From Petroclostridium sp. X23 (lineage in GTDB: Bacteria; Bacillota; Clostridia; SK-Y3): a DNA stretch of 64,000 bases. The stretch's first letter is position 1. Each line of letters opens with the position of its first letter. Under the pieces are notes generated by a model. That model did not search any database, was not told the DNA's origin, and was given only the letters and a program-made list of their open reading frames with translations. Of this stretch, positions 2,597 to 48,468 are shown in pieces. Position numbers and translations under genes: made by a program. The DNA lies in NCBI RefSeq assembly GCF_030013905.1, contig NZ_CP124862.1, positions 1,241,051 to 1,305,050 on the forward strand, in the 5' to 3' direction.

Positions 2597-4729
2597 ATGT
2601 CAGATCAAGATATCAAGAATTCCTATAACAGAAGTGCTGAGAGAATGCGGGGAGACAATAAGACTTTCGCATCTGCCCTTACCAGAGATGATACAAATGA
2701 TCCGACACTTCATGAAGATCTTCATGAAACCGTTCATGTGAATTATGATGATATCGAAAAATCTCCTTCCATGGAGCAGGTTCATCAGTGGCAGAGAGAA
2801 CATATGCAAAAAGACGATCAGTCCAAGGAAGGATACCCTCTTAATGTTATCATCGACCCGGCAATGCGGGAAATGTACCAGGTTGTACATAATGCAGGCA
2901 TGACCAATGTTTTTGACCGTTTCAGCCAACAACAGCCTATTCAGTGCAAATTCTGTATTGAAGGGTTGTCCTGCCAGCTTTGCGCAAATGGTCCATGCCG
3001 TATAAGCTCCAAGGTTCCCAGAGGGACCTGTGGTGTAGACGCACATACCATGGTTGCCAGAAATTTTGTATATCGGCATGTTACCATCGGTACTTCTGCG
3101 AATATATTCCATTGCCATCAGGCTGCAAGAACATTAAAAGCAGCGGGTGAGCATCCGGAAAGCGGATTAAAAATAAGAGATCCGGAAAAATTGAAAAAAT
3201 ACGCAGATATGGCAGGGCTGGATGCGAATAAACCAATTAATCAACTGGCTGTAGAATTTGCCGACTGGGTAATGTCTGATATTCACAGTCCCTTCCATAT
3301 TCCATCAAAAACAGTGGAAGCTTTTGCTCCGGCAAAACGTAAGGAATTGTGGAGAAATTTAGGGCTATTTCCCGGCGGCGGCTACAGCGAGGTCGCTTAT
3401 GCACAAACCATGTGCATGACCAACTTTACTTCCGACCCTGTAGCATTTTTACTAACCAGTGTACGTCTTGGTATTGCTAACGAATATCAAGGATTATTCT
3501 TATTGGATATTATCCAGGAAATACTAATGGGTACGCAGGAAATCGCTATGAAAAAGCAAAATATGGGACTGTTGAAAGAAAATATGATCAATATTGTCAC
3601 CAACGGTCATATGCCTCTTCTTGCCCATGTTGCCATCGATTTGGCTTCTACCGATGAATGGCAGCAAAAAGCCAAAGCAGCAGGAGCCGAGGGCATTCAA
3701 ATATTGGGACACGTATGTGAAGGACAGCAATTGATCAACTATGAGGGAATGCATAATCAAAAGGGATATGGCGGCCAGGAAGGCGAATGGCTGTCGCAGG
3801 AATATCTGCTGGCAACCGGCGTCGTAGACCTGTTTATGTTTGATTATAACTGTACTGTTCCAACCATGCCGCTTTTCGCAAAACGTTTTGGCACAAAACT
3901 ATTGAGTACGCATCCTGTAATAAAACTTCAAGGTACTGAAACTTTGGACTTTGTTCCTGAAAAAATGAAAGAACAGGCCGTGAAGGCACTTGATAAAGCG
4001 ATTGAATCTTTTAATAAAAGAAAAGGTACTAGTGAGAAAAAATATATTCCGCCGCATACATCAGATTGTATGGTAGGTTTTAGTACCGAATCGGTTAAAA
4101 AGGCATTAGGTGGAAGCTTCAAGCCCCTCATTGAACAAATCGCAAACGGAAACATCAGAGGCATCGCTACCATTGTTGGCTGTACTACTGCCCGTTATGG
4201 TCAAGGCGGCAGCAATATCTTCCGCATTACTCAGGGACTAATCAAAAATAATATATTGGTGCTATCGGGCGGATGTACCTCTGCTGTTATGGAATACACG
4301 GGACTTACAAACCCTAAAGCTGCAGATGAAGCAGGCGAAGGATTAAAAGCGGTATGCAAGCAATTGGGCATTCCTCCTGTATTGACCTATGGCGCATGCG
4401 TAGATATAGGAAAAATGACGCATACGGCAAAAGAAATTGCCGATGAGCTAGATGTGGATACCAATATGCTTCCTCTTGTCATCGGAGCACCTGAATATCT
4501 GGAGCAGAAAGCAGTCGCTGACGCATGTACCGCTGTTGCTCTTGGATGGCTGGTGCATGTCGCACCCGTACCTTCCATTACCGGCAGTGATGTTGTGGTA
4601 AAAACACTTACCGAAACAACTGAAACACTTGGACTAGGAAAAGTAGTTGTAGAAATGGATGCTGAAAAAACCATTCAAATTTATGTGGACCATATTGAAA
4701 AGAAACGTAAGGAGTTAGGATTGAACTAG
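2597..4729 (+). CDS. cooS: Anaerobic Ni-dependent carbon-monoxide dehydrogenase catalytic subunit (CooS family), with ~100-aa acidic His-containing N-terminal extension
   Basis: CKFCIEGLSCQLCANGPCRI...GTCGVDAHTMVARNF matches the CooS N-terminal B/D-cluster Cys motif and the following GxCG motif. Length 710 aa. RBS AAAGGAGGA at 2581-2589. No cooC, cooF or acs genes are adjacent. Confidence 0.8.
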   Translation: MSDQDIKNSYNRSAERMRGDNKTFASALTRDDTNDPTLHEDLHETVHVNYDDIEKSPSMEQVHQWQREHMQKDDQSKEGYPLNVIIDPAMREMYQVVHNAGMTNVFDRFSQQQPIQCKFCIEGLSCQLCANGPCRISSKVPRGTCGVDAHTMVARNFVYRHVTIGTSANIFHCHQAARTLKAAGEHPESGLKIRDPEKLKKYADMAGLDANKPINQLAVEFADWVMSDIHSPFHIPSKTVEAFAPAKRKELWRNLGLFPGGGYSEVAYAQTMCMTNFTSDPVAFLLTSVRLGIANEYQGLFLLDIIQEILMGTQEIAMKKQNMGLLKENMINIVTNGHMPLLAHVAIDLASTDEWQQKAKAAGAEGIQILGHVCEGQQLINYEGMHNQKGYGGQEGEWLSQEYLLATGVVDLFMFDYNCTVPTMPLFAKRFGTKLLSTHPVIKLQGTETLDFVPEKMKEQAVKALDKAIESFNKRKGTSEKKYIPPHTSDCMVGFSTESVKKALGGSFKPLIEQIANGNIRGIATIVGCTTARYGQGGSNIFRITQGLIKNNILVLSGGCTSAVMEYTGLTNPKAADEAGEGLKAVCKQLGIPPVLTYGACVDIGKMTHTAKEIADELDVDTNMLPLVIGAPEYLEQKAVADACTAVALGWLVHVAPVPSITGSDVVVKTLTETTETLGLGKVVVEMDAEKTIQIYVDHIEKKRKELGLN

Positions 4730-4922: not shown

Positions 4923-6071
4923 TCATGGCTTTCTTTTAAATATTTTATCAATGTCTTTATATTTATCAAAATACATGTACCCGTTGTTATGGGTTATTCC
5001 TTCACTCTTACCTAATACTAAAAAACCATTTCGTTCCAAAGAATTCCAAAAAACTTCCAGCACCTTTTGCTGCAGACTATTATTGAAATAAATCAATACA
5101 TTTCTACATAGTATTAGATGAAATTCATTCAATATACCTTGCTGGCATAGACTGTGTTCAAAGAACAATATATTCTTTTTCAAGTCTTCCCTAATCATCA
5201 GATATTTTCCTGTCATTGTAAAATAGTTCATAAAACTTTTCATTCCTCCGGCTTTTCGATAATTGATAATGCAATTATCCACATCATCCATCGGATACAA
5301 CCCATTTTTCGCTTCCTTGATTACCAAAGGATTGATGTCAGTGGCATAAATTTGTGTTTTCCCCAACATTCCGAGCTCGTCCAGCATCATTGCCATTGAA
5401 TATGGCTCCTGCCCGCTAGAACATCCTGCACACCATATCTTTATATGCGTAAAAGAATTTAAATACGGAAGTACCTTTTCACTAATTCTTCTATAGCTTT
5501 CAGGGTCTCTAAAAAATTCTGTAGTATTGATTGAAAAGTCCAATAATAGCTGTCCAAATTGTTCCTCATTTTCCAGTATCAATCTACGAAAATCGACAAA
5601 TCTTCCAATGCTCTTATTTAACATAGACAGCTTGATTCTCCTGATGATACTTTCCATTTGGTATTGAGTATAGTCATACCCATATTTAAGGAATAGTTCA
5701 TTCAAAAAATCTTTGACATCTTCTTCTTTTATTTTTTCTTTGTACGCTGGTTTATAATCGGATGTCACCCCTGTATACACAGTCTTTTCTCTAATATATT
5801 GACATTGGATATCCAGCTTGCTTAGATATGAAAATAGAAACCTTTTAACTACAAATATCTTGATTTTCTTATATTTCTGCATTGACATTAATATATTGAC
5901 TATATTTTTACTCAGTATACCGGCATCTGAAAAAGTCACATGCAGTTCCATATCATCTTTTTGTTTAAGCACAAAAATGAAATACTGTTCATCTTCGATG
6001 TTATATAAATCTCCAGAAACAAAAACATGCTTTATTCTATTATTCTCACGATGAACATTAATATTTCCCAT
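4923..6071 (-). CDS. CheR-type protein-glutamate O-methyltransferase with an extra ~110-aa N-terminal domain of unknown function
   Basis: CheR_N-like helix region (EDVKDFLNELFLKYGYDYTQY). SAM-dependent methyltransferase core (TEFFRDPESY, IWCAGCSSGQEPYSMAM, YATDIN, LCRNVLIYF). Last gene of the histidine-kinase operon. Confidence 0.75.
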   Translation of the reverse strand: MGNINVHRENNRIKHVFVSGDLYNIEDEQYFIFVLKQKDDMELHVTFSDAGILSKNIVNILMSMQKYKKIKIFVVKRFLFSYLSKLDIQCQYIREKTVYTGVTSDYKPAYKEKIKEEDVKDFLNELFLKYGYDYTQYQMESIIRRIKLSMLNKSIGRFVDFRRLILENEEQFGQLLLDFSINTTEFFRDPESYRRISEKVLPYLNSFTHIKIWCAGCSSGQEPYSMAMMLDELGMLGKTQIYATDINPLVIKEAKNGLYPMDDVDNCIINYRKAGGMKSFMNYFTMTGKYLMIREDLKKNILFFEHSLCQQGILNEFHLILCRNVLIYFNNSLQQKVLEVFWNSLERNGFLVLGKSEGITHNNGYMYFDKYKDIDKIFKRKP

Positions 6072-6125: not shown

Positions 6126-9100
6126 CTATTTATCTATCCAAGCCTTCACCAGACGAATTAACACATTATAATCTATGGGTTTGGAAATATAATCACTTGC
6201 TCCTACCGCAATGCATTTTTCCTTATCTCCTTTCAAGGTTTTTGCTGTTACTGCTATAATAGGAATATTCTTTAGTTTTTCATTATCCCGGATTGACTTT
6301 ATCATCTCATAACCGTCCATCACCGGCATCATAATATCCGTTAAAATCAAATCGATTTTATTTTCTTCAAGCTTTTTCAATGCAACTTTACCGTTTTCCG
6401 CCTCAATGATTTCAGCTCCATAATTCTCAAGTGTAGATGCCAACACAAATATATTTCTTGCATCATCATCAGCAATTAAAATCTTCTTTCCTTGTAAGTT
6501 TAAAGTATTTTTCTCATTTGCTGAAGAATGCACATACTGTCTATTCTTTTTTCTTACTTTATGCAAGAAAAGGGTTACTTCATCCAACAGCCGTTCATCC
6601 GAATTAGCTGTTTTAATAATAATGCTATCAGTATATTTGTTTAGTTGCTTTTCCATATCACCGGTTAATTCACTCGCGGTATAAATGATAATAGGAATTT
6701 TTATATTCTGCTCATCAATGAACTTACATATATCCATTCCATCTTCATCCCTTAACTGTAAATCCAATATTACGGCATCATATATTCTTTTAGAAAGTTC
6801 TGTTTTGGACTTCTCAACGCTATCCACACAAACGATTTGTATGTCTCCATTCCCAATTAATTCTTTCATCGCATTACGCTGAATCTCATCATCTTCAATA
6901 ATCAGTAAGTTTTTAGGACTCTTTTCCGAGAAAGCGATCATCTCAGAAATGATTCTGGCAACATCATTTGCATCAATAGGCTTCTGATAAAACCCTATGG
7001 CTCCCAATTTTTGCGCTTTGATATCTTTATTTTTCGCGGAAATGATATGTACAGGTATTCTTCTTAACTCTACATTATTTTTTATCTCTCTTAGCACTTC
7101 CATGCCGCTTATATCCGGAAGCATCAGATCAAGTAAAATTCCATCTATTTTATAATTCCGCACAAACTCTAATCCTATTTTTCCGGTAGGTGCAAGGAAT
7201 GTATTTAATCCCATGCCATCATTTATTTTTTTTATATATTTTGCAAAATCCGTATCGTCTTCAATAATGAGAATGTTCTTCTTTGATTGCCCTATACGCT
7301 CAATACCTTGTTCATCATCATTTAAACCTTCATGCGCTGCCGCAGTTTCTTCATATAGTATTTCCATCATATCATTAATGGCAATATTGCTTAAATGCAG
7401 TGAGAAAATGCTGCCTTTTCCCTCTTTAGTAACTACAGTAATTTTACCATCCATTATTGCTGCCAATTTGTTAGATATTGAAAGCCCTAAACCTGTTCCA
7501 CCATACTTTCTTGATATAGAACCATCCCCCTGCTTAAACTCTTTAAAGATGGTAAACAATTTTTCTTCCGGTATCCCTATACCTGTATCTGCAACTGAAA
7601 AAATGATCCCATTTTCTTTTTTCAGGTCCCGTGTCACTTGAAGTGTAACCGAACCTTCCTCAGTAAACTTGATTGCATTCGAAAGGAAATTACGTAAAAT
7701 CTGAGAAATTTTCTCTCGATCTCCTACTAATGCAGCATTTATCGAATCCTCCACCTCAAAATTTATGCCTTTTTCTTCTGCTGCCAAATGGAATAACTGC
7801 TGCATCTCTAATACCAATTCATTGGAATGGAACCTGGATATATTCAAATCCATTTTACCGGCTTCAATCTTTGAAAGGTCAAGAATGTCATTAATCAGAC
7901 GAAGAAGTTCCTGTCCGGCGTTGTATATTACATTGATTTTTTCCAATTCTTTTTCGCCTAATGCTTTATGCTCATTTCTAAACATTAGTTTAGATAGTAG
8001 TATGATAGAATTCAGTGGTGTACGCAGCTCATGAGACATATTGGCCAGAAATTCCGATTTGTATTTATTGGCTCGCTCTAATTCTATGGTACGATGATGC
8101 AGTTCCTCTTTAGACTGCTCCAATTCTTGATTCTTTTTACTAAGCATTCTGGACTGTTCTGCAAGCATTTGCTGTTGTTCTTCTAAATACGTGTTGGTTT
8201 GCTGCATTTCTTCACTCTGCTGTTGGAGCTGCTGCTGCTGTTCTTCTAACTCCGCATTTGTCTGTTGAAGCTCTAATGTTTGCTGATGAAGGAGTTTCTG
8301 TTGTTCTTCAAGCACTTCATTTGCTTTCTGCAGCTCTTGTGCACTCTCTTGTGCTTCTCTATGTGCTTGCTCGGTAATTTCAAACAGTTCTTTAATCTGC
8401 TGATTTTGAAGGGCAGAATATAGGTTGATTGATATTACTCTGCTTGCCTCTGCCATATATTCTTGTTTTAATTGGTCAAACACTTCAAAAGAAGACAGCT
8501 CAATCACACCATATAGTTCATCCTCATATACTAATGGAAATGCATAGATATTTAGGGGTGCTTCCTTGGAAGTTCCTGTTACAATCGTTGATTGGGACTT
8601 TTTAATATTTTTAAGATGGATAGGCCTTTTATCCACTGCAACTTGTCCGATAATTCCCTCCCCAAGCTTACAGCAGTTTAAAAGTTGATTTGCTTCATTA
8701 GAAGCAAATGTCGCTTGCAACTTTAAAACTTTCTCTTCAGGGTCATAAATATAAAAGACTCCATTCCCTGCCTCCATAATTCTTGAAAGAAGATTAATGG
8801 TTTTTTGGGCAAGGTCTTTTAAATCGAGGTCTCCCCAAAGCTCTTCATTAAGAAGATTTTGATTGTCCTTTATCCAGAACTGCTGTTTCAATTTTTTAAT
8901 TAATGTATTGTAATGTCCTGCCATATTAGTGATTTCATTTTCGCCCTCCAAGTCGGCTTCAGCTAATATGCCTGTATTGACACTGCTATACATTATTTTT
9001 CTCAGAAAACTAATTGGACTTATGATGCTGCGTATGATAAATACAAATATCCCCAAAGATATGAGGCAAAAAAAGATCATCCAAAAAATCTGCGTATTTT

Positions 9101-9668
9101 TTTGAAATTTCTGTACCTCGTTAGTTTGGTCTATAATTTCGCTGGTACGCTTAATAATTGTATCATCAATTTGCTCTAGTTTATTCTCAAGCTGCTGGAC
9201 AAACAATGTGTTTTTTACTTCAAAAGCCTCTTGCGCTTGTTGATGGTTTCCTTGTATAGCCAACATTATAATATCTTGTTGATTCTCTCTCCATTGTACG
9301 AGTATCTTGTCAATTTCTTTTCCTAATTGAGTTATTTCTTTCTCTTTGGTATTCCTTCGTACAATATCAAGTCGTCCATCCAATATCTGGTTTTGATAAG
9401 TCACTTCTTCTACCAGTCTCTGTACTTCGGACAGGTTCTCGGTTAATATGATTTCTCTCATTTTTGCTTCAGTTTTAAAAATCTGTACTCTCGCTTCAAT
9501 TGCAGCGTTGGATACCTTTAAATAATTATCGTGCATATTTTGCGCTAAACGCACCATTTGCTGCATTTGTAATATCTCAAATGCAGCAAACGCTATGAAC
9601 ATCATCATAAATATTGAAAATATGCCCAGTAATCTATTTTTAATACTTATATTATTTAAAAACCGCAT
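6126..9668 (-). CDS. Hybrid sensor histidine kinase: two TM helices with a periplasmic sensor, HAMP-like region, GAF domain, Gln/Glu-rich coiled coil, HisKA, HATPase_c and three receiver domains
   Basis: TM helices near residues 15-35 and 195-217. GAF-like segment (GEGIIGQVAVDKRPIHLKN). H-box ANMSHELRTPLNSI. G-boxes (DTGIGIPEE; GGTGLGLSI). Three REC domains (IIEDD...DLMLPD...K; IIEDD...DLQLRDEDG; IADDD...DIMMPVMDG...K). Confidence 0.85.
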   Translation of the reverse strand: MRFLNNISIKNRLLGIFSIFMMMFIAFAAFEILQMQQMVRLAQNMHDNYLKVSNAAIEARVQIFKTEAKMREIILTENLSEVQRLVEEVTYQNQILDGRLDIVRRNTKEKEITQLGKEIDKILVQWRENQQDIIMLAIQGNHQQAQEAFEVKNTLFVQQLENKLEQIDDTIIKRTSEIIDQTNEVQKFQKNTQIFWMIFFCLISLGIFVFIIRSIISPISFLRKIMYSSVNTGILAEADLEGENEITNMAGHYNTLIKKLKQQFWIKDNQNLLNEELWGDLDLKDLAQKTINLLSRIMEAGNGVFYIYDPEEKVLKLQATFASNEANQLLNCCKLGEGIIGQVAVDKRPIHLKNIKKSQSTIVTGTSKEAPLNIYAFPLVYEDELYGVIELSSFEVFDQLKQEYMAEASRVISINLYSALQNQQIKELFEITEQAHREAQESAQELQKANEVLEEQQKLLHQQTLELQQTNAELEEQQQQLQQQSEEMQQTNTYLEEQQQMLAEQSRMLSKKNQELEQSKEELHHRTIELERANKYKSEFLANMSHELRTPLNSIILLSKLMFRNEHKALGEKELEKINVIYNAGQELLRLINDILDLSKIEAGKMDLNISRFHSNELVLEMQQLFHLAAEEKGINFEVEDSINAALVGDREKISQILRNFLSNAIKFTEEGSVTLQVTRDLKKENGIIFSVADTGIGIPEEKLFTIFKEFKQGDGSISRKYGGTGLGLSISNKLAAIMDGKITVVTKEGKGSIFSLHLSNIAINDMMEILYEETAAAHEGLNDDEQGIERIGQSKKNILIIEDDTDFAKYIKKINDGMGLNTFLAPTGKIGLEFVRNYKIDGILLDLMLPDISGMEVLREIKNNVELRRIPVHIISAKNKDIKAQKLGAIGFYQKPIDANDVARIISEMIAFSEKSPKNLLIIEDDEIQRNAMKELIGNGDIQIVCVDSVEKSKTELSKRIYDAVILDLQLRDEDGMDICKFIDEQNIKIPIIIYTASELTGDMEKQLNKYTDSIIIKTANSDERLLDEVTLFLHKVRKKNRQYVHSSANEKNTLNLQGKKILIADDDARNIFVLASTLENYGAEIIEAENGKVALKKLEENKIDLILTDIMMPVMDGYEMIKSIRDNEKLKNIPIIAVTAKTLKGDKEKCIAVGASDYISKPIDYNVLIRLVKAWIDK
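8160..8345 (-). repeat. Coding heptad repeat in the hybrid histidine-kinase coiled coil: three L-E-E-Q-Q-x-x-L units (a Glu-Gln pair motif like MCP methylation sites)
   Basis: The DNA units ctgttgttcttc / ctgctgctgttcttc recur. Translation: EVLEEQQKLLHQQT ... AELEEQQQQLQQQS ... TYLEEQQQMLAEQS. Confidence 0.6.
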
Positions 9669-9712
9669 TTCTTTCCCCTCTAATCATGGTAAATTCCATC
9701 CCTGCTATTCAT

Positions 9713-11002
9713 CTACAAACAAATATCAGATAACTCCACCTGTACTTTTTTAAGGATATCCGGTTCTGCATTGTATACTAAATAACTATCCACATTCTTT
9801 TGATGTGTTTGCAAGTTATCCGGCAGCTCAACTATAAATTCCGTACCTTTTTTTTCGCTTGTCTTCACAAAAACCTGTCCATCATGCATCTCTACAAGAG
9901 ATTTGACCAGCCATAACCCTATTCCCGCTCCTTCATAATTTCTGGTAAATAAATGGTCTGTCTGTTTGAATTTTTCAAAAATAGCGCTTAGATTATCTTC
10001 TCTTATACAGGGCCCGTCATTCTTTACCGATATATGAACTGCTCCATCCAGCTCTTGTATATTAACTTCTATCGTTCCGCCATCTAAAGTAACTTTTATC
10101 GCATTAGATAATAAATTTAAAATAATCCGTTCAATGGCACTGATATCACAATTAACCATTTTTTGCGGTACATCTGAACGAAAAAAAACCATAATACCTT
10201 TTTTCTCTATAAATTCTTTTACGGATAATGTAAGTGTCTCAATCACCTGTACGATGTTGCACACAGTCCTGTTCAAAGTATAATGGCCGACATCGATATG
10301 AGTAATATCAAGCAAATTATTAATAAGACGCTGAAGCCTATAGCAGTTCTGCATCTGTACTTTTATTCTTTTTAAATATTTTTCTTTATGAGGAGTATCA
10401 TCGTTTTGGATATATATATTCATTAACTGAGTAGTACTTAACAATACATTTAGAGGTGTTCTAAGCTCATGCGATAAATTAGCTAGAAACATACTTTTTG
10501 CCTCATTCGCCGCTTCAGCTTCTTCTTTGGCTTTTCGTAACTCTTCGGTTTGCTGACGTACTTTCTTTTCCAGAAGAAGATTCATATTCCGTTCTTTTTC
10601 GATAAGTTTAAGATATACATTTATTCTATTGATTAATTGGTATTCATCTATGGGTTTAGTAAGGTAATCTACTGCACCAATTTCAAATCCTCTTCTTTTA
10701 AATTCTTCACTTATGTAAGATGCAGTTAAAAAAACAATAGGGATATCTCTTGTCTTCTTTCTTCTTTTTAAGATTGCCGCCAGTTCAAATCCATCCATTT
10801 CATCCATATGTACATCCAATATAATTAAATCTACAGAGTGTTTAAGAAGTACCTTTAGTGCCTTATCTCCACTATTTGCTTCAATAACATCCGCATTAAT
10901 ATATTGTTCGATTAATATCCGTAACGAGAATAAATTATTGTTATTATCATCAACAATTAATATGGTATAAGATGAAGTCTTCTCCATGATCCACTCCTCC
11001 AT
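9713..11002 (-). CDS. Response-regulator-histidine-kinase fusion: N-terminal REC, coiled coil, HisKA, HATPase_c; soluble
   Basis: REC (ILIVDDN...DLIILDVHMDEMDG...K). H-box LANLSHELRTPLN. ATPase G-boxes (NDGPCI; GAGIGLWLV). The likely true start is the second ATG at 10987, which sits behind GGAGGAG. Confidence 0.8.
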   Translation of the reverse strand: MEEWIMEKTSSYTILIVDDNNNNLFSLRILIEQYINADVIEANSGDKALKVLLKHSVDLIILDVHMDEMDGFELAAILKRRKKTRDIPIVFLTASYISEEFKRRGFEIGAVDYLTKPIDEYQLINRINVYLKLIEKERNMNLLLEKKVRQQTEELRKAKEEAEAANEAKSMFLANLSHELRTPLNVLLSTTQLMNIYIQNDDTPHKEKYLKRIKVQMQNCYRLQRLINNLLDITHIDVGHYTLNRTVCNIVQVIETLTLSVKEFIEKKGIMVFFRSDVPQKMVNCDISAIERIILNLLSNAIKVTLDGGTIEVNIQELDGAVHISVKNDGPCIREDNLSAIFEKFKQTDHLFTRNYEGAGIGLWLVKSLVEMHDGQVFVKTSEKKGTEFIVELPDNLQTHQKNVDSYLVYNAEPDILKKVQVELSDICL

Positions 11003-17263: not shown

Positions 17264-17414
17264 TATAGGAGGTTGTGAAAAAGTGCTTGATTGATCAGTC
17301 GCAAAGCATGGGGACGGACCTGCAGCTTCCCTAAAGAGCAAGCGCAGCAGTAGGTCCGTCCCCATGCTTCACTCCTTCTGCGTGCTAAATTTGATTTTTT
17401 CACAACCTCCTATA
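17264..17414 (+). repeat. Copy B (most complete) of the MITE-like repeat. 19-bp terminal inverted repeats flank a 22-bp GC-rich stem-loop.
   Basis: Left end TATAGGAGGTTGTGAAAAAGtgcttgattg. Right end aaatttgaTTTTTTCACAACCTCCTATA. Internal ggggacggacc...ggtccgtcccc. Confidence 0.65.
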
Positions 17415-18945
17415 TTTCTTTATTAATTTCTATATCATTATTGTCTACATTAACATCTTCTGTCATTCTGCTTTCCACATTATTATTGTCCGAATTGATC
17501 TCTTCTATGATTTTACTTTTTGCAATTGCCCTGGTATTGCTATTTGGGGTTTCATTTGTATTCTTTTTGTTGGACAGCAAATCTACTAGATTAACTCCGG
17601 TCAGCGCCTCCATTGTTTCAGGCAGCTGTGAAATAATATCAGTAATATACCCTGTGACTTTTGAAGCACCTTTTCCCTTCCCTTGACCATTTCCATTATC
17701 AACAATAACAATCTTTTCAGTTTTAGATAGTGGTTCGGATATGGCTCTCGAAATTTCAGGAAGCTTTTCTACAATCATTTGTGCCATCGCCGCTTCACCA
17801 TATTGCTTGAATGCTTCTGCTTTTAATTTCATAGCCTCCGCCTCTGCCTTACCTTTTTCTCTGATGATATCTACTTCAGCCATTCCTTCCGCCTTTTTAG
17901 CTTCGGCTTTTGCTCTACCTTCCAGTTTAATTGCTTCCGCTCTCGCTTCAGCATCCTGAATTTCTTTATACTTGATAGCTTCCGCCTGCTTTTCAGTCAT
18001 ATATTTATCTGCATCAGCCTGCTTTTTAATAGTCGCTTCAAGTTCTTTTTCTTTTCTAACCGCTTCTCTTTCAGCAATATCGATTTCCCTGTTTCTTCTT
18101 AAAAGTTCAACCTCCAGCTCGGTTTCGGTTACTTCTTTTGTAACCTTGTTTTCTTCGATCTTATATGCCAAATCAGCTTGTGCTTTAGCTGTTTGCTGTT
18201 CTTTTTGATACCCTTGGACTTTTAATTCCTTTTCTTTTGTAGCTTCGGCTATTTGCGTCTCCGCGCGCAGTTTTGCCTCTGCGCCCAATCTGTCGGCTTC
18301 TGCCGTTTTTATCGTTGTCTCCTTCCTTGCTTCAGCTTCAGCGATTAGAGCATCTCTCTTTACTTCTGCAATTCTTTTCTTCCCAAGGGCTTCCAAATAT
18401 CCGTTTATATCGCTTATGTCCCTGATAGTAAGCGCTTTTATTTCCAGACCCATTTCCGCAAGATCAACAGCTGCAACTTCCTGAACTGCTGATGCAAATT
18501 TTTCTCTATCCTTATAAATATCTTCCACCGTCATTTTGGAAACGATTTCTCTCAGTTTACCTTCCAAAACATCTTTTGACGTATCTTTGATAACCTCAAT
18601 GGTCCCTTGTTCATGTCCCGTATTAAATTGTTCTACAGCCGCAAGGATACTTTCAGTATCCGACTTGACCTTAATAACTGCTACACCATCAGCAATAATG
18701 GCAACCCCTTGCTCCGTCAGCGCACCATCAATACGTACTTCGATTTTCATATTTTCTAAGGAAATAATGTCCGTTTTTTCCAACAACGGTATCACAAATC
18801 CGCCACCGCCGGAAATAACTCTCTTTTTAAGGCCGGTAACAACTAAAGCCTTATCTTGTGAGACTTTTCTCCACATAGACAGAATCCCTAATAACAAAAG
18901 AACGATTACACCGATGATGCTGATAGGAATAATAAATAATTCCAC
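17410..18945 (-). CDS. floT: Flotillin-family SPFH protein
   Basis: N-terminal TM helix, SPFH domain, long Ala/Glu/Lys-rich coiled coil (EA repeats). 511 aa. Partnered with the upstream NfeD gene, as in the B. subtilis yuaF-floT pair. Confidence 0.75.
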   Translation of the reverse strand: MELFIIPISIIGVIVLLLLGILSMWRKVSQDKALVVTGLKKRVISGGGGFVIPLLEKTDIISLENMKIEVRIDGALTEQGVAIIADGVAVIKVKSDTESILAAVEQFNTGHEQGTIEVIKDTSKDVLEGKLREIVSKMTVEDIYKDREKFASAVQEVAAVDLAEMGLEIKALTIRDISDINGYLEALGKKRIAEVKRDALIAEAEARKETTIKTAEADRLGAEAKLRAETQIAEATKEKELKVQGYQKEQQTAKAQADLAYKIEENKVTKEVTETELEVELLRRNREIDIAEREAVRKEKELEATIKKQADADKYMTEKQAEAIKYKEIQDAEARAEAIKLEGRAKAEAKKAEGMAEVDIIREKGKAEAEAMKLKAEAFKQYGEAAMAQMIVEKLPEISRAISEPLSKTEKIVIVDNGNGQGKGKGASKVTGYITDIISQLPETMEALTGVNLVDLLSNKKNTNETPNSNTRAIAKSKIIEEINSDNNNVESRMTEDVNVDNNDIEINKEI

Positions 18946-19505
18946 TATACCCTCTCCTTTACTTTAATGTCATTTAACTGCGCTACATAAAAGGTATTCT
19001 TCTCTATTTTATGAATGATCACTTCCTTTCCTGCCCCTATATACCTATTATCAATATCTCTACAGGGAGCAGTATACTTGTTGCCATTAAACATATATGA
19101 AATAGTACCAAAGCCTTTCTCCATAATAGGAGATATGACTTTCGCCGGTGTACCGATCAGATACCGGTGTGAAGCTATCTTTTGATTATCCTGTATTTTA
19201 TATAAAGGTACGAGAACCAACCTGAAAAGTATGAACGCAATGATGAAACCCGAAAAAACCGCAGCAATAAATATGACATATGAACTCCATCCCCGGTAAC
19301 TTCCAAGCCATCCCACGCCGCCAAATACGGTAATAAAAGACATAATTACAATAGGCTTTAGTGGCGAAATATTTAACCATGGCACATCTACGCCCGGGTC
19401 AATGTCACCGCCCAAATCAAAAGAATCCAGAAAACTGCCCAGTATGGAAGATAATAGAGTATACGATACTCCTATTATAAAAAGAATTTGATAAGCCCGG
19501 AGCAT
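18945..19505 (-). CDS. NfeD-family membrane protein (YuaF-like flotillin partner)
   Basis: Three TM helices plus a C-terminal OB-fold-like soluble domain. Overlaps the flotillin start by 1 nt. Confidence 0.65.
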   Translation of the reverse strand: MLRAYQILFIIGVSYTLLSSILGSFLDSFDLGGDIDPGVDVPWLNISPLKPIVIMSFITVFGGVGWLGSYRGWSSYVIFIAAVFSGFIIAFILFRLVLVPLYKIQDNQKIASHRYLIGTPAKVISPIMEKGFGTISYMFNGNKYTAPCRDIDNRYIGAGKEVIIHKIEKNTFYVAQLNDIKVKERV

Positions 19506-28033: not shown

Positions 28034-28723
28034 TTAATACTTCTTACTTAGCGCATCTTTTATTATTTCTCTATATGTTGATCCTTTACTTATCAGATCA
28101 TCTATTCTTTCCTTAGATATGCCTAAGTTTTCTAGGTTAGCAATTAGTTCTGTATTAGGAAAAATAAAGTCTAATTCCTCTTGTGATATCTGAGTCATAT
28201 CCTCATATGTATAGCTTAGATTATATAATATGATACTCTTTTCTGAGTCAATCCCTTGTTCCAGTAATCTGTTTTGTTCTTCTTCTGAGCATGCAAAAAA
28301 ATCAAATCCTCCGCCATCTAAATGTGTTCCCGGAGCAAATATTATGTCAATTTGCTCTTGCGCTAAGGATAACATTTCTTCTTTATCAAATCCTAAATTT
28401 TCTAATGTATTTCTCATTTTTTCTGTAATTCCTTTTTGTTCCAATCTCTTCAATAATTCACTCTTTGAATTTTTTTCTTGCTCTAACTTTCTTAATTTAT
28501 TATCTTCAATTCTATTATCTATTGTATTTTCTTTGTTGCTCTCTTGCCCTAATGTGTCTTCAGCAGCTCTATTTTCAGAAGTGCTATTTACTTGAGCTTC
28601 TTTATCGAGATCTTTATTCATATACACAGAAGATGAATTAATATTTTTGTCTGCTTTCTGACATGACGATACCATGATTACTAAAAATATTATTCCAAAT
28701 AAAATCTTAATAACTTTTCCCAT
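28034..28723 (-). CDS. Hypothetical lipoprotein
   Basis: Signal peptide with lipobox (LVIMVSSCQ). Acidic low-complexity body. Confidence 0.4.
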   Translation of the reverse strand: MGKVIKILFGIIFLVIMVSSCQKADKNINSSSVYMNKDLDKEAQVNSTSENRAAEDTLGQESNKENTIDNRIEDNKLRKLEQEKNSKSELLKRLEQKGITEKMRNTLENLGFDKEEMLSLAQEQIDIIFAPGTHLDGGGFDFFACSEEEQNRLLEQGIDSEKSIILYNLSYTYEDMTQISQEELDFIFPNTELIANLENLGISKERIDDLISKGSTYREIIKDALSKKY

Positions 28724-28982: not shown

Positions 28983-29804
28983 TTATATACCATGATCTAC
29001 GATCCACACCGTATCTTCATCATCATATATCTCATACCTAAATGTTTCCCAATACCATTGAGAATGACGTATATTCTGTTGATTATAGCCATCTACTAAC
29101 TGAACTGTCATTTCTTTAGTAATATTAGTTACATTACTATGTCCATGAGCCGTATACTCTTCATCAAATTCAAAATAATCTGCACCGAAGTAAGTCTTCC
29201 ATGCCTCAGGTAAATGCATTCTTATCCTAAATTCATTTTCATTCTTACTATAGTTTATTAATTCTAAGCTCACTTTTATTGTTACTTCTTCTTTATCTGA
29301 ATGTGCTAGGCTAACTTTCGCATCTACTAAATCAATAGTCTCTAAATTATCTTTTAAAAGCCAATAATAGGTTGATCTAACAGTATTCAATGAGTTCCTC
29401 ATTATAGGCAATACTATTGTGATTAGTATTAAAAATATCAGGATTTTATTTTTGCTGGCAAATCTCTCTAACTTAAATAAACCCCGTATCCCAATAATAA
29501 ACAAAATGAGTGGTATTAATCCCGAAAGATAGATTACACCATTGCCTAGCCTTATTGGCCTTATTATATATTGTATAATTGAATAAGAATCGTGCGGAAG
29601 TCTTTGGGTTAGTAAAACCCCGAAAAATATACTTCCCAAATACTTAAGTAATCCTTTATTGTCCTTACTCACTTCCATCCCCCTATTTGATTGATTACGG
29701 TTTCTATCTTTTTCAATATAATAACTATCCTTTAAAAAGCCGGACAGCGGCAATAATTTGTATTGCAGCCATAGAACCCATGAAAAGACTTGAAATAAGC
29801 TCAC
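28983..29804 (-). CDS. Hypothetical membrane protein
   Basis: Two or three TM helices. A more likely start is the internal MEVSKDNKG behind GGGGATGGAAG. Confidence 0.35.
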   Translation of the reverse strand: MSLFQVFSWVLWLQYKLLPLSGFLKDSYYIEKDRNRNQSNRGMEVSKDNKGLLKYLGSIFFGVLLTQRLPHDSYSIIQYIIRPIRLGNGVIYLSGLIPLILFIIGIRGLFKLERFASKNKILIFLILITIVLPIMRNSLNTVRSTYYWLLKDNLETIDLVDAKVSLAHSDKEEVTIKVSLELINYSKNENEFRIRMHLPEAWKTYFGADYFEFDEEYTAHGHSNVTNITKEMTVQLVDGYNQQNIRHSQWYWETFRYEIYDDEDTVWIVDHGI

Positions 29805-30181: not shown

Positions 30182-31372
30182 TTACTCCGAAGCCTTAAAG
30201 TTATATACCGGCTTAATAATATCCAGTATTTCAACAGTATCGTTAATATTATTTATAATTTCCTCCATTGGTTTGTATGCCATAGGGGCCTCATCTACAG
30301 TGGAACGGTCCACACACGTTGTGTAAATCCCTTCCATAGATTTTTTGTATTCTTCCATGGAGATTCTTTCTTTTGCAGCGCCACGGCTCATCAGCCTTCC
30401 GGCTCCATGGGGAGCCGAATAGTTCCAGTCGGCGTTTCCTTTTCCTATGCAGATCAGCGCACCATCCCTCATGTTCATGGGAATAAGTACTTTTTGCCCC
30501 TCATAAACAGCAATGGCTCCTTTGCGAAGGATTTTCGCCTGAACTTCGATATAGTTATGGATAGTGGTAAAACGTTCCGTCTCATCTACCTTCATATGAC
30601 CCAAAATCTCATCTACAATGGCCAGTCTGTTGAGAACGGCATACTGTTGCACGATCTCCATATCATGAAGATAATCATCGAATAGATCACCCTCCACATA
30701 AGCCAATTGTTTGGGTACCTTCATATAATTAAGTTTCTTTAGTTCATCTTGTATTTCATTTTTTCTTCCTTGTTCCTTCAAATCCTCAATAAGTTTCTGC
30801 TTCTCTTTTGATTTTTTGTTCAAGCTGTTGAAAGCAGTCTTCTGATAATATTCCGCCACTTGCTTTCCCAGATTTCTGCTCCCTGAGTGAACAACCAGCC
30901 AGTACTTGCCCTCTTGGTCTACATCCACTTCTATAAAGTGATTCCCTCCGCCCAAGGTTCCTACACTTAGCTGTGCTCTCCTGAAATTAACATGCTTTAA
31001 ACATCTTAGGTCCTCAAGTCCGGCTTTTTTCTCATACTTATGAATCTTAGACCGTATATCGAAACCTGATGGTACATTTTTTCTAATCACACTATCCAGC
31101 GCTCCCAAATCCAGTTTGCGGACTTTTAATCTTACTGCTTCCATTCCACACCCAATATCCACCCCCACCAGATTGGGCACAATCTTGTCTGAAATGGTCA
31201 TTGTCGTTCCAATCGTGCATCCTGCTCCGGCATGCGTATCGGGCATGATTCTTATCGTACTGTCTTTCACAAATTCTTGATTGCATAGCTCTATGATTTG
31301 TGAGACAGTCTGTTCTTCTACATGATCTATGTATACTTTTGCAGTATTATATTTCCCTTTTACTTCTATCAT
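30182..31372 (-). CDS. rtcB: RNA-splicing ligase RtcB (3'-phosphate/5'-OH RNA ligase)
   Basis: PDTHAGAGCTIG, GNHFIE, PHGAGR metal/GTP-binding motifs. 396 aa. Confidence 0.8.
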   Translation of the reverse strand: MIEVKGKYNTAKVYIDHVEEQTVSQIIELCNQEFVKDSTIRIMPDTHAGAGCTIGTTMTISDKIVPNLVGVDIGCGMEAVRLKVRKLDLGALDSVIRKNVPSGFDIRSKIHKYEKKAGLEDLRCLKHVNFRRAQLSVGTLGGGNHFIEVDVDQEGKYWLVVHSGSRNLGKQVAEYYQKTAFNSLNKKSKEKQKLIEDLKEQGRKNEIQDELKKLNYMKVPKQLAYVEGDLFDDYLHDMEIVQQYAVLNRLAIVDEILGHMKVDETERFTTIHNYIEVQAKILRKGAIAVYEGQKVLIPMNMRDGALICIGKGNADWNYSAPHGAGRLMSRGAAKERISMEEYKKSMEGIYTTCVDRSTVDEAPMAYKPMEEIINNINDTVEILDIIKPVYNFKASE

Positions 31373-31438: not shown

Positions 31439-32572
31439 TTACTTGCTCACTTTGCATTCATTAGCCTTATTTGACAGCAGTGCATTAAGCTGTTCAATCA
31501 ATGTGCCGCCACCTGTTAGAGAGATATTCCCTATTTTATCACAGATTTTTTCCAAAAACTCCAGTTCTTTTAATCTGAACAATGTCTGGTTTTCTTCCAT
31601 CAGCTTTGCAGTGTTTAAAAGGCTTCTTGTCGAAGCAACTTCTTCCCTCCTGGTAATAACATTCGCCTGTGCCTTCTTTTCGGCAATGAGCACGGTATTT
31701 AATATTTCTTTTATGTCTCCGGGCAATATAATATCCTTGACACCTGCAAATAAAAATTCCACACCGTAGCTACTGCTTTTCTCCTTTAACTTCTCAAGAA
31801 CATAGCTTCCTATCTCCTGTTTCTTCAAAAGAAGATCATCTAGTTTTAAAGCTCCTACATATTCCCTCAAAATCAACTGCAAAACTATGTAAAGTTGTTC
31901 CTCGAAGGACTTTATCTCAACAATTTTTAACGGATCTGTGACCCTGTAATGGCATACAAAATTTAATCTCAATGTAATCTTATCTTCCGTCATAATCTCC
32001 TGACCGGCCATATCCAACTGCTGCTGTCTTAAATCCACATTCTTTACGACAACATGTACAGGACTTTTCCAGAAGAAATACCTACCCGGCTCTAAAGTTT
32101 TTTGTGTTGCATTGTTATAATAGAGAATGCCTTTTTCATGATTTCCTACTTCATAATAACCCACATGCGCTGCAAGTTTAGGGCTATTGTAAATAGAGGC
32201 ATCAATATCCGGTTTTACTTCAGGGTTTCTAATGTCTACAACAATAAAGTCATGGTTTTTAAGTATGTTCCAGAACGCATACTTTCCGGACTTAAGTACC
32301 TCTACAAGTTTACCGTCTTCAAAATGAATGACAATTTCATAATCCTGGACATCTATCACTGTAAGCTCCTTCAAAAGCTCCGTATCCTCAAGAAACAGGT
32401 TTATATTTTTACCTGCCGAATCAAAGGCTTTATTTACATCAGACACAGCAACTCTATATTTAATAAATGGATTAAGATAATGTTTGCCCGGCATTAGGCA
32501 CTTAATATAGTTGCCATCCCTAAACAATAAACCTCTTTCATCATTCTTGATAATTACCTTCATTTTGACCAC
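31439..32572 (-). CDS. Cytoplasmic SPFH/band-7 domain protein with a duplicated N-terminal SPFH beta-region
   Basis: No TM helix. Two PGxHF/YF segments (LMPGKHYLNPF; LEPGRYFFWKSP). C-terminal SPFH helical region (AEKKAQANVITRREEVAS). 66 nt upstream of rtcB on the same strand. Confidence 0.55.
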   Translation of the reverse strand: MVKMKVIIKNDERGLLFRDGNYIKCLMPGKHYLNPFIKYRVAVSDVNKAFDSAGKNINLFLEDTELLKELTVIDVQDYEIVIHFEDGKLVEVLKSGKYAFWNILKNHDFIVVDIRNPEVKPDIDASIYNSPKLAAHVGYYEVGNHEKGILYYNNATQKTLEPGRYFFWKSPVHVVVKNVDLRQQQLDMAGQEIMTEDKITLRLNFVCHYRVTDPLKIVEIKSFEEQLYIVLQLILREYVGALKLDDLLLKKQEIGSYVLEKLKEKSSSYGVEFLFAGVKDIILPGDIKEILNTVLIAEKKAQANVITRREEVASTRSLLNTAKLMEENQTLFRLKELEFLEKICDKIGNISLTGGGTLIEQLNALLSNKANECKVSK

Positions 32573-32884
32573 CCTTTCATAAAAAGTATCAGTTGTTTTT
32601 GTAAACCTTTTTCAAGAATCCTCCCGTAACGTCGGCGGAGTGCTGCTTAAGGATATTGCTTACAAATCGTTGCACATGACTTCATGCATATTTTAGGTAC
32701 TGCTTGATTCATTTGCAATGAAGATTCACCTACAAGGATAGGTTTGCCATACCCGGTATCCGCACACTTCAAGGCTTAAGTTCCGGTGTTTTCACAAAAA
32801 AATCTGCAAAAACCTGAGGACTCTTTTCAAAGGTACCTGTGAAATACCTCGAGTGACCGTCGAGCGCTAAACCATAGCAATCAG

Positions 32885-33015
32885 ATCCTTCATCTGATGG
32901 GGATTCGAACCCCTTTTCCTTGCCTTATGCTCTACCGCTGAGCTAATTACTTTACAGTAATGGAGGAATCGAACCTCCGACACTAAGGTTCTTGAGTTCC
33001 ACCTTTTCCCGGCAT
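32885..33015 (-). pseudogene. tRNA-derived fragments: two canonical T-arms and one canonical D-arm, but no intact anticodon arm
   Basis: Minus strand: GGAGGTTCGATTCCTCC-ATTACTG ... AAGTAAT-TA-GCTCAGCGGTAGAGC-A ... GGGGTTCGAATCCCC. Upstream lies a GCCGGGA...GGTGGAACT...CTTAGTGTC type-II-tRNA-like 5' piece. The acceptor strands do not pair to give any complete tRNA. Confidence 0.45.
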
Positions 33016-33155
33016 ACCTCTTATGACTATGGTAAAAGGCACCGCAAGACCTTTCAGAAATCTTTGCATTGGGAATGGGAACAATTTTAGTATACGAGAA
33101 TAAATTACCAATTAACAGACAAAAAGTTTGCAACCTTTATCTCGTTGCAAACTTT

Positions 33156-35463
<2,308 letters not shown>

Positions 35464-36512: not shown

Positions 36513-36899
36513 TCATAAAAATCCAAAAATGAATACTTCTTTCCGCCTTTTTTCCCATCCTAAAACTGAATTCAAGTTCACATTTTGAGCTGATTGGAAT
36601 ATACACTTATCCACAACATCAAAGTTCTTTTTCAGCGCTTTTATCAATTGCTTTACCTCTCGGCGCTTGCTGGATGTCTTTTGTGCTGCCACAACACATC
36701 CGCAATTCATTGCCATACTGCCGTTACTACTGGTAAAACGCTTAATATCGTCCTCTTTGACATAATACATGGGACGTATCAATTCAATCCCTTTAAAGTT
36801 TTTTGATTTTAATTTATGCCATACTTTACCTTTCTGTCTTGGATCAAATATTATCATAAAATGTTTAAAAAAGCTTCCTTTATATTTTTTATTGACCAT
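36513..36899 (-). pseudogene. Truncated duplicate of the 3' ~360 bp of the ttcA-like gene (47581..48468); a gene fragment
   Basis: 36470-36830 aligns to 47566-47925 at about 93% identity. The translation shares KSKNFKG(I/V)ELIRPMYYVKEDDIKRFTSSNG(S/I)MAMNCGCVVAAQKTSSKRREVKQLIKALKKNF, then diverges at a 1-nt indel near the 3' end. No PP-loop N-terminal part is present. Confidence 0.6.
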
Positions 36900-47580: not shown

Positions 47581-48468
47581 TTATTCTTCAAATGATTGCT
47601 CGGACTCTTCTTCATAAAAATCCAAAAACGAATACTTCTTTCCGCCTTTTTCCCATCCTAAAACGGAATTCAAGTTTACATTTTGGGCTGATTGGAATAT
47701 ACACTTATCCACATCATTAAAGTTTTTTTTCAGCGCTTTTATCAATTGCTTTACCTCCCGGCGCTTGCTGGATGTCTTTTGTGCTGCCACAACACACCCG
47801 CAATTCATTGCCATAATGCCGTTACTACTGGTAAAACGTTTTATATCATCTTCTTTGACATAATACATGGGACGTATCAATTCAACCCCTTTAAAATTTT
47901 TTGATTTTAATTTCGGCCGCATGGTTTTAAAACTACCGGCATACAACATATTTAGCATGGTGGTTTCTATCACATCATCAAAATGATGCCCCAAAGCCAG
48001 CTTATTGCATTCTAACTCCTGCGCTTTGGCATAAAGATGGCCTCGCCGCATTCTTGCACACAGATAACACGGATAATCGCTTGCAATATCATCAATCACC
48101 TCAAAAATATCCGTCTCGAAAATCTGCACCGGAATATCCAGATGCTTGCAGTTATTCATTAACATCGTCCTATTGCTGTCATAGTATCCGGGGTCCATCG
48201 CGATGAATTCCAGTTCAAATTGGATCTTTCCATGGCGCTTTAATTCCTGAAATAATTTTGCCATCAGTAAGCTGTCTTTCCCACCGGAAAGGGCCACCGC
48301 AATTTTATCACCGTCCTGAACCAGTTTAAAATCGTTAATTGCTTTATTAAACCTCGTCCATATATGCTTTTTATATGTTTTCGTGATGCTCCGTTCAATT
48401 TCTTTAAGCGTTTTCCTTTCACCTAAAGGAATGACTACTTCACAACCGCTTCCTGCTATACCACTCAT
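47581..48468 (-). CDS. ttcA: TtcA-like tRNA 2-thiocytidine synthetase / PP-loop ATP pyrophosphatase
   Basis: PP-loop SGGKDS. CxxC motifs (CYLC; MAMNCGC). 295 aa. Confidence 0.65.
   Translation of the reverse strand: MSGIAGSGCEVVIPLGERKTLKEIERSITKTYKKHIWTRFNKAINDFKLVQDGDKIAVALSGGKDSLLMAKLFQELKRHGKIQFELEFIAMDPGYYDSNRTMLMNNCKHLDIPVQIFETDIFEVIDDIASDYPCYLCARMRRGHLYAKAQELECNKLALGHHFDDVIETTMLNMLYAGSFKTMRPKLKSKNFKGVELIRPMYYVKEDDIKRFTSSNGIMAMNCGCVVAAQKTSSKRREVKQLIKALKKNFNDVDKCIFQSAQNVNLNSVLGWEKGGKKYSFLDFYEEESEQSFEE

Follow-up and report, generated by a model that had tools for sequence, protein, structure and literature searches.

The DNA considered here, a stretch of 64,000 nucleotides (nt) from Petroclostridium sp. 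X23 (contig NZ_CP124862.1, positions 1,241,051 to 1,305,050), is termed the window and numbered from its first letter. It harbours a predicted structured RNA of about 470 nt (minus strand, ~33077 to ~32605), which contains two modules resembling transfer RNA (tRNA) and is oriented in the same direction as the adjacent genes for an SPFH/Band-7 protein and the RNA ligase RtcB. On the minus strand the elements follow each other in the order WYL+WCX gene, WYL/WCX-like gene, terminator-like hairpin, promoter match, RNA, SPFH gene and rtcB. The original prediction for this DNA had described the same context, with two WYL genes upstream and SPFH and then rtcB downstream. The first gene (34153-35457) codes for a WYL and WCX domain protein of 434 amino acids (aa), the first of a tandem pair of putative regulators (Pfam WCX, 5.1e-13; Pfam WYL, 2.5e-5; PADLOC WYL, 2.5e-27). 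The second, divergent WYL/WCX-like protein of 354 aa (33156-34220) is detected by PADLOC (WYL, 2.6e-6) and, below the cut-off, by Pfam (WCX, 1.1e-3). Its stop codon is overlapped by a terminator-like hairpin, read from the sequence (33121-33157; AAAAAGUUUGCAAC-gagauaaag-GUUGCAAACUUUUU), which gave spurious miRNA-hairpin matches in a permissive Rfam scan and was left unflagged by a terminator scan because of its 9-nt loop and few G-C stem pairs. A sigma-70-like promoter match follows (33084-33111; TTGGTA, 16-nt spacer, TAAAAT), a match to the consensus only, at 9 of 12 positions, from which transcription would start near 33077; sequence conservation in relatives begins just 3' of it.

Downstream of the promoter match, comparative structure delimits a 5' domain (33005-33075), which is followed by the first tRNA-like module, M1 (32923-32988), the second module, M2 (32848-32914), and a 3' domain of 230 nt (32605-32834). 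The SPFH gene (31439-32572; Pfam Band_7, 8.3e-31) is annotated as “slipin family protein”, and rtcB (30182-31372) encodes an RtcB-family RNA ligase of 396 aa (Pfam RtcB, 5.6e-65), which scores under the NCBIfam equivalog cut-offs and is therefore divergent.

M1 and M2 are two tandem, circularly permuted tRNA mimics, in both of which the acceptor stem is capped by a loop. M1 starts with CCUUA, the 3' strand of an anticodon stem, and GUGUC, a variable loop, and proceeds to the first T-arm (32978-32962; GGAGGTTCGATTCCTCC, as RNA GGAGGUUCGAUUCCUCC). Directly 3' of this arm lies ATTACTG, the beginning of the acceptor hairpin AUUACU-guaa-AGUAAU (32961-32946). After UA follows the first D-arm (32943-32929; TAGCTCAGCGGTAGAGC, as RNA GCUCAGCGGUAGAGC), which is thus preceded by AAGTAAT-TA, and the module ends with A and UAAGG, the 5' strand of the anticodon stem, so that the flanks CCUUA and UAAGG form a closing stem. 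M2, which is opened in the variable region, comprises the second T-arm (32913-32899; GGGGTTCGAATCCCC, as RNA GGGGUUCGAAUCCCC), a 7-bp acceptor hairpin (AUCAGAU-gaagg-AUCUGAU, 32898-32880), a D-arm (GCUA-ugguu-UAGC, 32878-32866) and a complete anticodon-type stem-loop with a 5-bp stem and a 7-nt loop (CUCGA-cggucac-UCGAG, 32864-32848). Both modules keep the T-loop UUCGANU and the GG of the D-loop, and M1 additionally keeps U8, A14, G15 and C48. Given these nucleotides, both modules would be expected to adopt an L-shaped, tRNA-like fold with an intact elbow.

The original prediction had been drawn from 32885-33015, and every T-arm and D-arm string it listed on the minus strand is found there. 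It had seen no pairable acceptor stems; the acceptor strands of each module in fact pair with one another as capped hairpins, and the complementarity it noticed between a 3' fragment (ATTACTG) and a matching 5' fragment (AAGTAAT) is genuine and represents the acceptor hairpin of M1. A complete anticodon arm is indeed lacking within 32885-33015, yet one is present just outside, at 32864-32848, and was missed because the interval stops within M2. Likewise, of the proposal that a tRNA had been “broken or permuted”, the permutation holds, whereas breakage or decay does not fit a structure that is conserved through compensatory changes.

The permuted order leaves no normal-order cloverleaf with an acceptor stem formed from the 5' and 3' ends, and ARAGORN, one of the checks suggested at the outset, finds no tRNA in the 64-kb window. 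Rfam at curated thresholds gives no match in the window either. Under permissive settings (32300-33500), the best hit is YrlA (RF02553; 42.7 bits, E=7.4e-8, full model, 32903-33000, minus strand), while the tRNA family (RF00005) reaches 19.9 bits against a cut-off of 29, in a partial match that runs over the first D-arm and the second T-arm. A minimum-energy fold of the single sequence mispairs the tRNA-like modules, and comparative structure was used instead.

For this purpose, 79 SPFH loci from species-representative genomes were drawn from a set of at least 558 matches; as the search itself was built on the SPFH gene, 79 of 79 loci contain it. Nearly all loci carry a T-loop motif 250-650 nt upstream of the SPFH start. 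A covariance model, R1, was built from 11 clean M2-type modules, a consistent subset chosen because MAFFT misaligned the unequal-length acceptor hairpins of a larger set of 33. R1 matches M2 at 32848-32914 (47.0 bits, E=2.4e-11) and M1 at 32925-32978 (42.8 bits, E=4.7e-10). Together with the YrlA match and a 21-mer considered below, these scores place the arrangement well outside chance. In 75 of 80 loci, the strand of the SPFH gene carries at least one module at a distance of 120-750 nt upstream of the gene, and two of the five loci missed are represented by a contig without upstream sequence. R1 also matches genuine tandem tRNA genes in one tRNA cluster, the class of false positives against which Chen et al. 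2014 (PMC4201824) cautioned; the modules are thereby confirmed to be strongly tRNA-like.

Compensatory base changes occur in all four helices of the modules. In the model-fitted alignment of 59 R1 matches at E<1e-7, 93.9% of cells are paired (37-50% in slid controls), both sides change in 18 of 20 pairs, and the observed values are reached by 0 of 500 shuffles. For 14 M1-type sequences aligned by sequence only, RNAalifold recovers a cloverleaf without anticodon loop, with compensation in 13 of 18 pairs; the flanking stem of M1 is compensated among relatives as well, e.g., CCUUA/UAAGG versus CCGGA/UUCGG. The module order T-arm, acceptor hairpin, D-arm, anticodon arm recurs in Clostridia, Paenibacillus, Negativicutes and spirochaetes. 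As judged by eye, Paenibacillus and many other loci possess a single module of the M2 kind, and an M1-type module followed by a second module is seen in Clostridia, Thermoactinomycetaceae, a Pelosinus and a treponeme. Many Paenibacillus copies have a degenerate D-arm.

These comparisons bear on the idea that the locus contains tRNA genes in decay or the residue of an integration event aimed at a tRNA. Arms that resemble tRNA without a canonical cloverleaf, and the failure of ARAGORN to find anything, would suit such an origin, and the original prediction had considered an att-site scar at an island boundary. Decaying tRNA fragments would, however, not preserve their pairing while both sides change, and the modules are therefore not decaying: their conservation extends across phyla, every helix shows compensatory changes, and their position and strand are fixed relative to the SPFH gene. 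Furthermore, a Pfam scan of about 36 open reading frames (ORFs) between 9.7 and 54 kb of the window yields no integrase, and the genes flanking the system are ordinary transporters and metabolic enzymes of a housekeeping type. A 21-mer across the first T-arm and the acceptor strand occurs once in the 64-kb window, against 0 expected, and the 3' fragment has no second copy there that could represent a direct repeat. The comparative data refute the decay or att-scar explanation, to which we assign practically no credence.

The anticodon-type arm of M2 combines a constant frame with a variable centre. Among 49 modules with a complete stem, the loop measures 7 nt in 43, and across these 43 loops C32 is found in 36, U33 in 37, A37 in 37 and A38 in 38, while CUCGA/UCGAG is the almost invariable stem. 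The triplet in the middle takes 16 different forms and varies even between close relatives, those of the window carrying GUC, GUU and GAA. A possible explanation is that the loop acts as a decoy or sentinel, which baits tRNA-cleaving toxins, such that the RNA either soaks up the toxin or, upon cleavage, signals for repair. The conservation of stem and loop frame around a changing triplet would be in line with this idea, and the common triplets include UUU, GUU/GUA/GUC and UUC, which are targets of known anticodon nucleases. Moreover, Hughes et al. suggested for YrlA that it might compete with an anticodon nuclease. On the other hand, the variation of the triplet may be merely neutral, the window loop CGGUCAC has G rather than U at position 33, and M1-type modules lack an anticodon loop altogether. 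No toxin gene is consistently linked to the locus, and according to the literature Salmonella YrlA is not cleaved by an SOS-induced nuclease. Taken together, we consider a decoy function unlikely.

Individual loci display further variants of the modules. In Lachnoclostridium sp. UBA6558 (locus L075, 5341-5560) three to four modules are arranged in tandem, one of which combines a D-arm of class-II type (GCCAAGUGGUUAAGGC) with a closed anticodon arm and, ahead of the next T-arm, an apparent long variable arm; at 40 bits, Rfam takes 5429-5491 of this locus for a tRNA. A similar class-II-like module with the loop UUUCAGA is present in locus L071. Two ARAGORN calls look like false ones, namely a 96-nt “tRNA-Arg(cct)” in locus L043 (5567-5662) that ends in the T-arm of a module, and a “tRNA-Val” in locus L015 (6230-6307) that lies within the SPFH coding sequence. 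The modules thus constitute an annotation trap, since tRNA finders and genome pipelines either miss them or call odd tRNAs.

The modules are embedded in a larger conserved structure. Roughly 500 nt between the WYL and SPFH genes can be aligned among close relatives and show a consistent consensus fold. In the 5' domain, a closing stem and a hairpin are joined by a helix whose asymmetric internal loop is conserved (…GCGG-U-GCC…hairpin…GGU-AUG-CCG…), and the domain's motif YNGCRGUGC-hairpin-GUAUNCY is found in 68 of 80 loci. In a MAFFT alignment of 48 sequences, 83% of the cells of this domain are paired, compared to 33-48% in slid controls. Two alternative pairings score about equally overall; the C-R-G/C-Y-G helix is favoured because one of its pairs covaries perfectly, pair 54-87 being AU in 30 sequences, GC in 18 and unpaired in none.

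The 3' domain forms a long irregular stem, which is closed by ACCUUU/AAAGGU and AAGAGUCCU/AGGAUUCUU and contains a conserved internal loop with GGAUACC (32761-32755) opposite CCUUAAGC (32652-32645), the consensus partner being CUYAAG. Applied to 30 diverse sequences that MAFFT aligned by sequence only, RNAalifold predicts 35 long-range pairs with spans of up to about 250 alignment columns, in which 89.8% of cells are paired (38-47% when slid) and both sides change in 30 of the 35 pairs; none of 500 shuffles attains such a score. The domain is also recovered in the consensus of the close-relative group, and when the window sequence is folded singly (z = -3.2), the 5' domain reappears along with the helices that close the 3' domain. 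For the closing helix of the latter, RNAduplex and longest-run scans gave no signal distinct from shuffles, because their windows were long; the unbiased RNAalifold analysis of the MAFFT alignment decided the matter. No Rfam family matches the 5' or the 3' domain, even at E up to 10. An 88-aa ORF with a TTG start (32867-33133, minus strand), which overlaps the 5' domain, M1 and most of M2, was rejected as a gene, since relatives differ there by 1- and 2-base insertions or deletions and by compensatory pairs.

Among known RNAs, M1 most closely resembles the Y RNA YrlA, which is laid out as T-arm, acceptor-like hairpin, D-arm and closing stem and is found on the same strand within 4 kb of rsr, the gene for Ro60 (Chen et al. 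2014, PMC4201824). M1 shows the same permuted order, closed by an anticodon-like flanking stem, keeps the nucleotides for tertiary contacts and, like the YrlA of rsr-yrlBA-rtcBA operons, is encoded in an operon with RtcB. The RNA might thus be conceived as a canonical YrlA that acts with a Ro60 protein (Rsr) encoded elsewhere in the genome, the more so as YrlA is the best Rfam match. Yet its 42.7 bits lie under the Rfam gathering score of 69, which is reached in none of the 11 related loci scanned, and the RNA tracks the SPFH gene instead. The long terminal stem carrying the Ro60 site is absent, the outer stem having been forced onto the second T-arm by cmscan, and the 513 nt upstream of the Band-7 start codon, as far as 33085, cover the whole RNA and contain no motif GNCGAAN0-1G. 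No TROVE-domain (Ro60, rsr) gene is found among the roughly 36 ORFs scanned with Pfam between 9.7 and 54 kb. Finally, unlike YrlA, M1 is followed by a second module and forms a single domain within a far larger RNA. Hence M1 is built like YrlA, yet the RNA should not be filed under this family, because gathering score, Ro60 stem with motif and proximity to rsr all fail; a canonical YrlA is very improbable here.

The setting corresponds instead to a class that has been predicted before. According to the summary given by Wang et al. 2018 (bioRxiv 10.1101/312249), Burroughs and Aravind 2016 (NAR 44:8525) predicted a Band-7-associated tRNA-like RNA (“b7a-tRNA”) beside RtcB, which is described there as unvalidated and as bearing a strong likeness to a genuine tRNA; YrlA, too, occasionally adjoins Band-7 (Wang et al. 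2018). The RNA of the window is a member of this predicted class, matched through the Wang et al. summary of the prediction, since it is a tRNA-like RNA that is found beside a Band-7 gene (75 of 80 loci) and RNA-repair genes. It shares the combination of Band-7/SPFH and RtcB, and the RlaP nucleotidyltransferase of the same 2016 study adjoins 16 of the loci analysed here. The permuted order, the tandem of M1 and M2, the variable triplet and the 5' and 3' domains are absent from Rfam 15, RefSeq annotation and the searchable literature, the latter exclusive of the content of Burroughs and Aravind 2016, which is represented by the summary of Wang et al. Literature searches retrieved no experimental follow-up of the predicted class, and a 2026 study of a Pseudomonas aeruginosa SPFH gene located inside the rtc locus makes no mention of tRNA.

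A 3' half that precedes the 5' half, with the acceptor strands joined by a loop, is also a feature of the permuted tRNA genes of Cyanidioschyzon merolae and of two-piece permuted transfer-messenger RNA (tmRNA), which mature into a working tRNA or tmRNA. The modules described here share this order and the loop-joined acceptor strands. They differ in that their acceptor stems mostly comprise 5-7 bp and have neither discriminator nor CCA, in that they are embedded in a larger RNA, and in the degenerate D-arm of the many Paenibacillus copies mentioned above.

While the SPFH gene is the constant partner of the RNA, the other neighbours vary. Homologues of the first WYL gene are found beside the unit in 30 of 79 loci, in 29 of which the second WYL gene accompanies the first. 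RtcB is present in 25-27 of the 79 loci, either after SPFH or before the RNA; several loci show the gene order RtcB, RNA, SPFH, and the RNA can therefore reside within an operon, as YrlA does, rather than solely as a 5' leader. RlaP, a nucleotidyltransferase that Pfam assigns to an “RNA repair pathway”, directly follows SPFH in 16 loci and also in Escherichia coli. The polynucleotide kinase-phosphatase-ligase Pnkp is encoded near the unit in 5 loci, and the unit thus combines with more than one RNA ligase family; in locus L021 (1877-4435) and four other loci a full-length Pnkp gene is situated upstream of the RNA and SPFH. The original prediction had alternatively linked a functional tRNA-like RNA to an Rtc-type system. 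This reading is supported in outline, with a mechanism that we infer below, whereas rtcB as the invariant partner is not borne out, given the constancy of SPFH and the occurrence of rtcB in about one third of the loci.

Within one 10-kb stretch, Paenibacillus sp. CCS19 (locus L030) has three copies of the module (884-946, 3069-3131 and 8610-8672), which precede a 30-codon SPFH remnant (1225-1314) and two intact SPFH genes (3411-4499 and 8934-10040), respectively. As each copy is accompanied by an SPFH gene or its remnant, RNA and SPFH gene behave as a unit and appear to duplicate as a cassette. The SPFH subfamily is present in at least 558 species-representative genomes. The class extends into the Pseudomonadota: on a Burkholderia chromid, two modules lie upstream of the SPFH gene (R1, 36 and 19 bits). 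A weak R1 match (19 bits) is found in E. coli upstream of a “slipin family protein”-RlaP gene pair (L080/L082), which is located between yjbD (DUF3811) and lysC, has a shorter leader and is preceded by a sigma-54-type element, TGGCAC-N5-TCGCA (TGGCACGCTTCTCGCA). The gap upstream of slipin in E. coli contains nothing annotated and no Rfam match; the gene together with this upstream region occurs in 1632 of 5426 complete E. coli genomes (~30%). A zeta-toxin family gene is convergent to the E. coli locus.

Based on the structure and conservation of the RNA and on its linkage to the SPFH and RNA-repair genes, we lean, with no more than moderate confidence, towards the view that the RNA is the ribonucleoprotein partner of the SPFH protein, cut from the operon transcript and coupled to RNA repair. 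Following transcription, the RNA would be excised from the operon transcript and form a ribonucleoprotein with the soluble SPFH protein encoded beside it, with the internal loops conserved in the 5' and 3' domains of the RNA as the probable sites of contact. The tRNA-like modules may then offer a tRNA-shaped surface, which recruits tRNA-binding enzymes or competes for them, and the SPFH protein would thereby be coupled to the repair of RNA ends, performed by RtcB or, in other genomes, by RlaP or Pnkp. Such a pairing of SPFH protein and RNA parallels Ro60 and YrlA of the rsr-yrlBA-rtcBA operons. Single-stranded nucleic acid elicits a response from tandem WYL proteins such as PafBC, and the WYL pair of the window probably controls transcription upon a signal of nucleic-acid damage. 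Damaged tRNAs are known to regulate RtcR, the regulator of classical rtcBA operons (PMC7790460).

Several points weigh against this view. The ends, processing and stability of the RNA are presumed, as is its binding by the SPFH protein. The alignment of the 59 R1 matches was fitted to the model and leans towards structure, and since the sequences are related, the shuffle controls do not represent probabilities. The YrlA match falls under the Rfam gathering score and the Ro60-binding stem is absent. In about two thirds of the loci there is no RtcB within 6 kb, and a link to ligation is hence not obligatory. Moreover, the fixed position immediately 5' of SPFH fits a cis-acting leader equally well.

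Such a leader would stay on the mRNA and set read-through, stability or translation of SPFH and rtcB, and the tRNA-like modules would serve as sensors that are, for example, bound, modified or cut by a tRNA-directed factor. The RNA is always found, in the same orientation, directly upstream of SPFH, the closure of the 3' domain lies 30-60 nt ahead of the start codon, the RNA was duplicated together with the SPFH gene in Paenibacillus sp. CCS19, and Rtc operons respond to damaged tRNA (PMC7790460), all of which would be in agreement with regulation in cis. Position alone does not separate a leader from a ribonucleoprotein. However, the terminator scan and the window fold reveal neither a terminator/anti-terminator alternative nor a sequestered ribosome-binding site, and about 470 nt with four independently conserved domains are large for a leader. 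Dedicated regulators are already in place, namely the WYL pair and, in E. coli, the sigma-54-type promoter, and YrlA, to which the RNA is most closely related, acts in trans as a stable RNA whose gene lies within an operon (PMC4201824; bioRxiv 10.1101/312249). A cis-regulatory leader is the main, if rather unlikely, alternative.

The protein component of the proposed ribonucleoprotein belongs to a family whose members are usually treated as membrane scaffolds. The SPFH protein of the window has no predicted membrane segment, and its sequence matches stomatin over residues 162-344. In an AlphaFold2 model (mean predicted local distance difference test score 75.5, C-terminal third of low confidence), N-terminal five-stranded beta units, only two or three repeats in number, are followed by the SPFH domain and a long helix; the stomatin-type succession of SPFH domain and coiled-coil helix is found by Pfam, the stomatin match and the fold search alike. 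Stomatin and HflK/C give the best E-values in Foldseek, while the longest alignments are obtained with the major vault protein (MVP; 420-480 columns, query-normalised TM-score 0.41-0.43).

MVP builds an RNA-associated cage. It shares with the SPFH model the order of repeats, SPFH shoulder and cap helix, and the SPFH gene is likewise genetically coupled to a structured RNA, any RNA binding and assembly of its product being hypothetical. The two systems differ in that the top-scoring matches of the SPFH protein are stomatin and HflK/C rather than MVP, and in that vault RNAs are not tRNA-like; the likeness to MVP is a resemblance of the predicted model and not evidence of a cage. In a more far-reaching scenario, the MVP-resembling, soluble SPFH protein would assemble around or onto the ~470-nt RNA to yield a vault-like ribonucleoprotein, and the permuted tRNA mimics would hold out a fast-evolving anticodon loop as bait for tRNA-cleaving toxins; the WYL pair, for instance, would sense the cleavage, which RtcB, RlaP or Pnkp would go on to repair or answer. 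We regard this scenario as quite unlikely; if true, the locus would encode an RNA-based surveillance device for attacks on tRNA. Less likely still is the notion that RtcB circularises a permuted module and thus releases a spare tRNA.

The substrates and cofactors of bacterial RtcB systems are largely unknown, and the locus adds a structured RNA with good support, which neither Rfam nor RefSeq annotation contains. The RNA is large, widespread, unannotated and experimentally accessible; E. coli, with its weak R1 match, and P. aeruginosa, where an SPFH gene lies inside the rtc locus, are tractable species. A soluble SPFH protein paired with a tRNA mimic suggests that protein and RNA have been combined a second time, independently, for the repair or surveillance of RNA, in addition to Ro60 and its Y RNAs.

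Further features of the window lie outside the RNA-SPFH unit. PADLOC contains no model for the SPFH protein or the RtcB of the window, and none of the phage records encodes the SPFH protein; an origin from a mobile element or a defence island is thus unsupported. Two ORFs are located 3' of rtcB, at 28983-29804 (minus strand, 273 aa) and 28034-28723 (minus strand, 229 aa), neither of which is kept beside the system in the 79 related loci. The former has no detectable relatives in Pfam, NCBIfam or the PDB sequences and was ruled out as the RlaP nucleotidyltransferase, and the latter gives faint MksE/JetB-like matches only. Another SPFH protein, of flotillin type (Band_7 and Flot, 511 aa) and unrelated to the first, is encoded at 17410-18945 on the minus strand, directly downstream of a 186-aa ORF (18945-19505, minus strand) with no Pfam match; this gene is not accompanied by a tRNA-like RNA and falls outside the system. 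TtcA is the tRNA 2-thiocytidine(32) synthetase, and 1 kb upstream of the WYL genes, a 128-aa ORF (36513-36899, minus strand) shows a weak match to the TtcA C-terminus (7.7e-10, far under the cut-off) and could be the fragment of an enzyme that modifies tRNA anticodon loops. A full PP-loop ATPase is encoded at 47581-48468 of the window.

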